Positions 16,219-16,250 of a stretch of DNA of 16,533 nt are shown here, one piece after another. The notes under the pieces were generated by a model. That model was not told the origin of the DNA. It did no database searches and saw only the letters and a list, made by a program, of their open reading frames with translations. This stretch comes from a virus. Position 1 is the stretch's first letter; each line of letters starts with the position of its first letter. A program made the translations under genes and the position numbers. The stretch lies in UHGV virus genome UHGV-1601610; one strand, written 5' to 3'.

Positions 16219-16250
16219 CTTTTTCCGCGACGCTCCCGCCCCGTGGCAGG
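16219..16250 (-). other. cos-like site (candidate cosN): minus strand CCACGGGGCGGGAGCGTCGCGGAAAAAG
   Basis: Compared with the lambda cos junction as I recall it (ACGGGGCGGCGACCTCGCGGGTTTTCG), the flanks ACGGGGCGG and CGCGG are conserved while the central 6 nt differ (GAGCGT vs CGACCT). It sits about 190 bp upstream of the Nu1 start, the same spacing as in lambda. The candidate 12-nt cohesive end would be GGGCGGGAGCGT (plus coordinates 16230-16241). Confidence 0.55.

Follow-up and report, generated by a model that had tools for sequence, protein, structure and literature searches.

Does the GC-rich element near the end of this 16,533-nt stretch of viral DNA (UHGV virus genome UHGV-1601610; the whole stretch is called the window here) represent a lambda-type cos site, and would ends cut there be incompatible with those of lambda? 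With a probability of roughly 0.88, we consider positions 16062 to 16270 (minus strand) to be the complete cos of a cdtI/Tritos-type lambdoid prophage, arranged in the order cosQ-cosN-spacer-cosB-terS-terL. This explanation is favoured because the motif is unique, deposited phage records end at it, relatives are active, cosQ and IHF sites are present, the boundaries of conservation are where they should be, and both the cyanophage Cr-LKS3 and the literature are in line with it.

Inspection of the minus strand gives GGGTCCT (cosQ), 22 nt, and then CCACG/GGGCGGGAGCGT/CGCGG, with slashes at the putative nicks; the wider context reads ...cGGGTCCTcccagtgggggtccctgccACG GGGCGGGAGCGT CGCGGaaaaagactagtttttg... 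The core features are as follows.

16225..16244, minus strand: cosN, reading ACG, GGGCGGGAGCGT, CGCGG; flanks and left half are those of lambda, N15 and Gifsy-1
16230..16241, minus strand: predicted 12-nt 5' cohesive end GGGCGGGAGCGT, left end of the virion DNA
16242/16241 and 16230/16229: putative nicks, placed by homology, in the top strand (the minus strand of the window) and the bottom strand, respectively

With up to one mismatch allowed, the flank pattern ACGGGGCGGNNNNNNCGCGG (also written ACGGGGCGG-N6-CGCGG) has a single match on the two strands of the 16.5-kb window, and it appeared in 0 of 200 dinucleotide-preserving shuffles. The 12-mer is identical to lambda GGGCGGCGACCT at 8 of 12 positions, with mismatches at positions 7, 8, 9 and 11; all differences are confined to positions 7-12 between identical flanks, as described for lambda-type 12-nt cosN sites (PMC4669245). 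Partial twofold symmetry in the 16-bp core extends to 8 of 16 bp, counted by eye (CGGGGCGG versus the reverse complement of GAGCGTCG), compared with 10 of 16 bp in lambda cosN (PMC9026076). A preliminary description of this DNA had reported a GC-rich element with lambda-like cosN flanks, a cohesive-end centre unlike that of lambda and a 12-mer at 16230-16241. Each of these observations holds, the 12-mer being read on the minus strand.

An alignment with three known cos sites, of the kind the preliminary description had in mind, reveals the shared flanks, the shared left half and the GGGTCCT cosQ. Given below are the left flank, the 12-mer, the right flank and the distance from cosQ to the nick.

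Lambda: ttACG, GGGCGGCGACCT, CGCGGG, 23 nt
N15: ttACG, GGGCGGCGTCCG, CGCAGA, 23 nt
Gifsy-1: ttACG, GGGCGGCAGCGT, CGCAGG, 23 nt
Window: ccACG, GGGCGGGAGCGT, CGCGGA, 22 nt

The cosQ heptamer is present in four of the four, and the N15 record labels the first 12 bases of that phage as its sticky end. With lambda, the window has in common this heptamer, the ACG/CGCGG nick flanks, the left half GGGCGG, the 12-nt spacing, the layout and a gpA-family TerL, whereas its TerS falls into a different Pfam family and its cosB is unrelated in sequence. The cohesive end of Gifsy-1 is 11/12 identical to that of the window: both share the right half AGCGT, unlike lambda at positions 8, 9 and 11, but position 7 is C in Gifsy-1 and G in the window. 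Unlike the window, Gifsy-1 has a Nu1 of the lambda/21 type (phrog_57) and a gpA annotated as a phage-21/lambda homologue. The group formed by mEp460, mEp043, mEp213, LLS and Fels-1 resembles the window in its terminase families (DUF1441 TerS, gpA-like TerL), the 22-nt cosQ spacing and the CCACG left flank, but has other cosB classes and a TerS only about 41% identical. Here the 12-mer is GGGCGGGAGCGG in mEp460 (one base off that of the window), GGGCGGCGCGCT in LLS, mEp043 and mEp213, and GGGCGGCAGCGG in Fels-1; in the Providencia phage PSTCR8lys it is GGGCGGCGTGCT. The ends of the mEp460 group were inferred and not mapped (PMC12315714). In Gifsy-2 (locus about 270-330), Fels-1 and PSTCR8lys, the GGGTCCT cosQ is replaced by AAAGGTACTCC. 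Gifsy-2 further carries the 14-nt GGTGGCTTCGGGCT between its CCACG and CGCGG flanks and thus does without the otherwise invariant GGGCGG left half.

Two elements border cosN on either side.

16264..16270, minus strand: cosQ GGGTCCT, packaging-termination element, 22 nt upstream of the top-strand nick
16207..16229, minus strand: conserved spacer, +13 to +34, at the position of lambda I2, with the near-palindrome AAAAAGACTAGTTTTT inside

GGGTCCT occurs once in the window, and its distance of 22 nt lies within the approximately 20-25 bp upstream of the nick that are typical of cosQ. In 107 IMG/VR loci with this cosN, column conservation climbs to 96-100% exactly at cosQ (-29 to -23), with divergence further upstream, remains high until +34 and then collapses. 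The spacer is 93-100% conserved across all cosB classes in these loci; since the search pattern preset conservation at -4 to +23, positions +13 to +23 are uninformative and only +24 to +34 count within the spacer.

The ends of deposited phage genomes bear directly on the site. From base 1 of both records, the window aligns with the phages cdtI (AB285204 / NC_009514) and Tritos (OV696610) at 97.5-97.9% identity over 16.2 kb, and it is the left arm of a phage of this type. Both records start exactly at GGGCGGGAGCGTCGCGG, their first 12 bases being GGGCGGGAGCGT, and end exactly at ...CTGCCACG (...CCACG); the proposed nicks are therefore the ends chosen by two independent depositors, who may have set the record starts by analogy with lambda. 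The two phages have the same 12-mer, the same flanks on both sides and the same TerS as the window, and their cosQ and cosB are nearly identical to its own. Differences comprise a small number of substitutions (A in place of G at +24, for example) and the sequence upstream of cosQ, which in cdtI is unlike that of the window; moreover, the right arm of the window copy is interrupted by an IS3 after 237 bp. Tritos, known as prophage 3 of E. coli LF82, has been reported to be induced spontaneously, to form plaques on K-12 and, from imaging, to be a siphovirus (PMC9928086). The ends of the cdtI and Tritos records, cosQ 22 nt upstream and a gpA-family TerL downstream support the reading of the element as a lambda-type cos and genome junction. 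Its identification was correct, but already known: this sticky-end variant has been the deposited end of cdtI since 2007.

The same 12-mer is found in PhiR40_1, mEp460_ev081 and HannyBb. At its end (2585-2790), the record of mEp460_ev081 (LR597641) repeats some 107 bp of the cosB region in direct orientation, probably an artefact of assembly or circularisation and not biology. The start of the 4F5 record was considered as evidence for an end and rejected; the nick is 5 nt downstream of it, and the record, a simple permutation, carries no end information. We found no accessible paper mapping virion ends for this exact 12-mer (the sole text match was an unrelated paper on a mammalian promoter), and end mapping is absent from the Tritos (PMC9928086) and Ayreon papers; the nick positions thus rest on homology. 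Among 80 of the 120 metagenome contigs listed, none ends exactly at the nick. Several metagenome contigs end 8-23 nt from it, as would be expected of breaks in the assembly graph where the shared cosQ-cosN block has its edge, rather than of DNA termini.

Upstream of cosN, the window continues into the other end of the phage genome and then into an insertion sequence.

16242..16478, minus strand: phage right arm, last 237 bp, non-coding or unassigned, ending at the right cohesive end
16479-16533: IS3 terminus (TGATCTTACCCAGCAATAGTGGACAC...), the last 55 bases, with terminal inverted repeat and leader

E. coli prophage loci match the right arm at 100% identity, and for the final 247 nt of the Tritos record the identity is 91%. 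The preliminary description had placed the left/right junction of the genome inside the window, in agreement with the cdtI/Tritos alignment. It had further taken 16251 to 16533 as the far right end of the phage, which needs correction: the right end begins at 16242, and phage DNA extends from there no further than 16478. Counted from the IS3 end, cosQ is 208 bp away and the right end of the phage 237 bp. E. coli EC21Z-063 has this IS3 terminus as well, at a distance from cos that is greater by 135 bp, which points to either an independent insertion or an IS-adjacent deletion. For annotation, the prophage has its left end at 16241, would be packaged towards lower coordinates and has a right arm that is interrupted by IS3 within the window; the assignment to the cdtI/Tritos-type lambdoids places it in a group able to carry toxin genes.

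All sizeable genes of the window are encoded on the minus strand and make up a complete morphogenesis module in lambda order.

15518..16057, minus strand: terS, small terminase, DUF1441 / phrog_141 (Pfam DUF1441, E=1.7e-44)
13410..15509, minus strand: terL, gpA-family large terminase (GpA_ATPase, E=5e-81; GpA_nuclease, E=1.8e-86)
13201-13419, minus strand: head-tail adaptor
11693-13273, minus strand: portal, lambda-family
9721-11940, minus strand: protease-capsid fusion, ClpP-like
3479-9679, minus strand: decoration, neck, tail terminator, major tail, chaperones and tape measure, the last at 3479-6574
down to 1148, minus strand: gpM, gpL, gpK and gpI homologues

The reading frame at 9721-11940 is a single ORF of 739 amino acids, in which a ClpP-like prohead protease is fused to the major capsid protein; such a fusion has been described for Gifsy-2-type heads (PMC12315714).

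Counting G at 16241 as +1, terS starts at +185 (16057), with 184 nt in between. An alternative ATG at 16045 (+197), the annotated start in Tritos, has GGAG 6 nt upstream and is better placed. Lambda Nu1 starts at +191; the preliminary description had given a distance of about 190 bp to the small-terminase gene. Its term "Nu1-like" for this gene stands in part. TerS occupies the position of Nu1, and there is weak reciprocal profile similarity spanning most of both proteins: TerS matches phrog_57, the family of Nu1, with E=1.1e-9, and lambda Nu1 matches phrog_141 with E=5.6e-8. On the other hand, the best families of TerS are DUF1441 and phrog_141 ("terminase small subunit", E=3.8e-65), and not phrog_57 or the Pfam Nu1 family, and BLASTP detects no pairwise similarity between TerS and lambda Nu1 (E=4.6). 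As the similarity is at the profile level only, the term is true of the position and probably of a distant ancestry, not of the family; judged from sequence, TerS would be at most a distant homologue of Nu1, with which it probably shares ancestry. TerS is 100% identical at the amino-acid level to its counterparts in cdtI, Tritos and HannyBb. TerL is of the gpA type, scoring 272 and 290 bits against PF05876 and PF20454 (cut-offs 25.6 and 22.5). It is 24% identical to lambda gpA, 42% to the TerL of Cr-LKS3 and 100% to that of HannyBb. A comparison with solved structures gave no usable matches for TerS or TerL.

The site is widespread. The exact 27-nt junction is present in at least 120 IMG/VR contigs and the 23-nt left end in at least 120 metagenome contigs. 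Of 5,426 complete E. coli genomes, 651 (~12%) contain the cos-terS module, counted as at least 80% of a 634-nt query comprising the IS3 end, the right arm, cos and the 5' part of terS. In several E. coli genomes, the module resides in Qin-like prophage remnants beside gnsB, ynfN and cspI, with a truncated terL. This raises the question whether the window holds a genuine cos by descent that is nevertheless a fossil, never cut here, in a prophage made defective by IS3 and maybe by other lesions beyond the window. In favour of this, the IS3 end abuts the right arm at 16479, and many complete E. coli genomes hold the same module in Qin-like remnants that are degraded, their terL and portal genes being truncated; in addition, the window does not include the half of the prophage that encodes regulation and lysis. 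Against this, all head and tail genes from terS to the gpI homologue are full-length ORFs with strong family matches, both terminase subunits are those of an isolated phage, HannyBb, without a single amino-acid difference, and IS3 is located outside the conserved cosQ-to-cosB block. We regard a fossil state of this copy as somewhat unlikely.

If the complete cos of a cdtI/Tritos-type prophage is accepted, its overhang could still differ from the 12 nt proposed. The closest relative found with reported end mapping is cyanophage Cr-LKS3, which has a mapped 9-nt 5' overhang, GGGCTCGCG (PMC9303873). It encodes a DUF1441-type TerS (38% identical) and the TerL mentioned above, and its overhang is located between the same flanks as in the window, CG/GGGC on one side and /CGCGGAA on the other. 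It differs from the window in the overhang length (9 versus 12 nt), in a cosQ-like GGGTCCC at another spacing and in its cyanobacterial host. By analogy, this mapping supports nicking beside the CG/CGCGG flanks in this terminase clade, and it shows that the overhang length is not fixed there. Shorter cores also occur among relatives. In 4F5 (LR595868, mEp460_4F5; 1-30), GGGCGGGAG precedes CGCGG, with 9 nt between the flanks, and at the VT1-Sakai locus (about 265-295), GGGCGGGCGGG precedes CGCGG, with 11 nt. Other IMG/VR loci have 10-11 nt between ACG and CGCGG and a cosQ-to-nick distance of 24 nt, not 22, so that the distance from cosQ to CGCGG stays at 34-35 nt. The variants below 12 nt may be sites with a reduced overhang, like the one mapped in Cr-LKS3, or may be defective or wrongly assembled.

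A cos site whose nicks are not 12 nt apart, the overhang being shorter or shifted, would be compatible with these variants of 9-11 nt, with the 9 nt of Cr-LKS3 and with the low identity of TerL to lambda gpA. However, the Cr-LKS3 nicks abut the very flanks that are spaced by 12 nt here, as in lambda, N15 and Gifsy-1, and the records of cdtI and Tritos use the proposed ends, which makes a different overhang very improbable in our view. That a chance GC-rich match was picked up, or that packaging is of the headful (pac) type, had no observation in its favour, has hardly any chance of being true and was rejected on the shuffles and on the gpA-family TerL, whose characterised members (lambda, N15 and Cr-LKS3) make 5' cohesive ends, with the exact junction kept in at least 240 public contigs and cosQ correctly spaced.

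Within the cos proposed here, cosB has no obvious counterpart of the R3-R2-R1 orientation pattern; the elements seen are an IHF consensus, a triplet element and two repeat copies, all of which we treat as candidates for R3-like, IHF and repeat sites.

16184..16198, minus strand: triplet-repeat element GGCGGCGGCAGCATG, +44 to +58, at the R3 position of lambda and N15
16166..16178, plus strand: IHF consensus (WATCAANNNNTTR), +64 to +76, candidate I1-like bend site
16139..16148, minus strand: TTTTCACCTG copy 1, +94 to +103, candidate R2/R1-like repeat
16062..16071, minus strand: TTTTCACCTG copy 2, +171 to +180, just upstream of terS

R3 is located at +50 to +65 in lambda and at +48 to +60 in N15 (PMC9026076), and GGCGGCGGCAGCATG is a candidate for the primary TerS-binding site. 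The R3 position is taken by a different triplet run in each cosB class (CATCATCATCAT, CGTCATCACCACTAC, CGGCCACCATCATC and CAGCAGCAG), and this class-specific run may be a TerS recognition element that covaries with the TerS class. Trinucleotide runs seen at the equivalent +44 to +60 in the loci of relatives are GGCGGCGGCAGC, CATCATCATCAT, CATCACCACTAC, CACCATCATC or CAGCAGCAG. The IHF consensus has its sole match in the 16.5-kb window here, and perfect matches are found at the same place in cdtI (+64), mEp460 (+62) and PSTCR8lys (+64), representing three cosB classes. In a pattern search, TTTTCACCTG yielded two exact copies in the window, both inside cosB; copy 1 is polymorphic in about one third of class-A loci, so its role is uncertain. 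A scan of the cos region for promoters and terminators found none.

Beyond the conserved block, which reaches from cosQ (-29) to +34, IMG/VR prophages have at least four cosB sequence classes, from +35 on, joined to an identical cosQ-cosN block. In the mEp460, 4F5 and PhiR40_1 lineages, homology to the window is lost within about +43 to +97 and returns at +829 (window 15413), 32 codons into terL. Given this gap between the constant block and terL, cosB, terS and the terL N-terminus appear as a swappable cassette on a cosQ-cosN scaffold.

15414-16206: exchangeable cassette of cosB, terS and the first 32 terL codons, about +35/+44 to +828

Such boundaries of conservation are the pattern expected if cosQ and cosN serve TerL and cosB serves TerS. 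Work with hybrids of lambda and phage 21 assigned packaging specificity to cosB, Nu1 and the Nu1-binding N-terminus of gpA, in the same arrangement.

By homology to lambda, the DUF1441 TerS would bind cosB, probably at the +44 to +58 element, and IHF would probably bend the DNA at +64 to +76. The bound cosB complex would then place two nuclease centres of the gpA-family TerL on cosN, where TerL would nick the top strand after ...CCACG and the bottom strand before CGCGG, generating the 12-nt 5' ends GGGCGGGAGCGT. Translocation would proceed leftwards in window coordinates, via terS and terL onward, and packaging would stop at the next cos through cosQ and cosN. The nick positions and the TerS and IHF binding sites in this scheme are placed by analogy.

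How unusual is the sticky end itself? Natural cosN differences are common at bp 7-12 (Feiss 2015); N15 deviates at 9 and 12 and Gifsy-1 at 8, 9 and 11 (PMC4669245). Conservation is reported for the left half of cosN, for the CG dinucleotides beside the nicks and for cosQ, and variants of the right half are cut efficiently by lambda TerL (PMC4669245; PMC9026076). A similar picture emerges from an IMG/VR sample of 120 contigs, listed in arbitrary order, that match GGGTCCT-N(17-22)-ACGGGGCGG: these contain more than 25 different right halves, and among the matches listed, that of lambda is the commonest (~65 sites) and that of the window second (~13 of 120 contigs). A dedicated survey by Vahanian et al. 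in 2017 (Virology 509:140) is likewise said to have found cosN positions 7-12 variable and the left half, the CG flanks and cosQ conserved. The sticky end of the window conforms to this published rule, as a naturally occurring version of the part of cosN that varies, the right half; being widespread in E. coli and consistent with the rule, it adds nothing new to the biology.

The preliminary description had further proposed that the ends, if real, are incompatible with those of lambda. With nearest-neighbour parameters for DNA, the following duplex energies were predicted.

Window, cognate ends: 0 mismatches, -19.0 kcal/mol
Window with lambda: 4 mismatches, -9.9 to -11.2 kcal/mol
Lambda with N15: 2 mismatches, about -15 kcal/mol

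The pair of lambda and N15 ends, with its two mismatches, is viable at a yield of ~25% (PMC4669245). From 4/12 mismatches and the weaker predicted duplex, poor annealing of the window ends with lambda ends can reasonably be expected, and incompatibility is plausible on this model. It would matter only for chromosomes started at one type of cos and finished at another. One may ask if the G at position 7 together with the AGCGT right half has been selected as a "compatibility group" of cohesive ends and is not neutral. If so, a mixed-cos chromosome would fail to circularise when lambdoid prophages or cos-bearing islands share a cell, and the constant cosQ-cosN block with at least four cosB-terS-terL(N) cassettes would provide two independent layers of packaging specificity. 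We consider selection of this kind improbable: the tolerance of lambda TerL for right-half variants and the viability of ends with two mismatches favour neutral drift.
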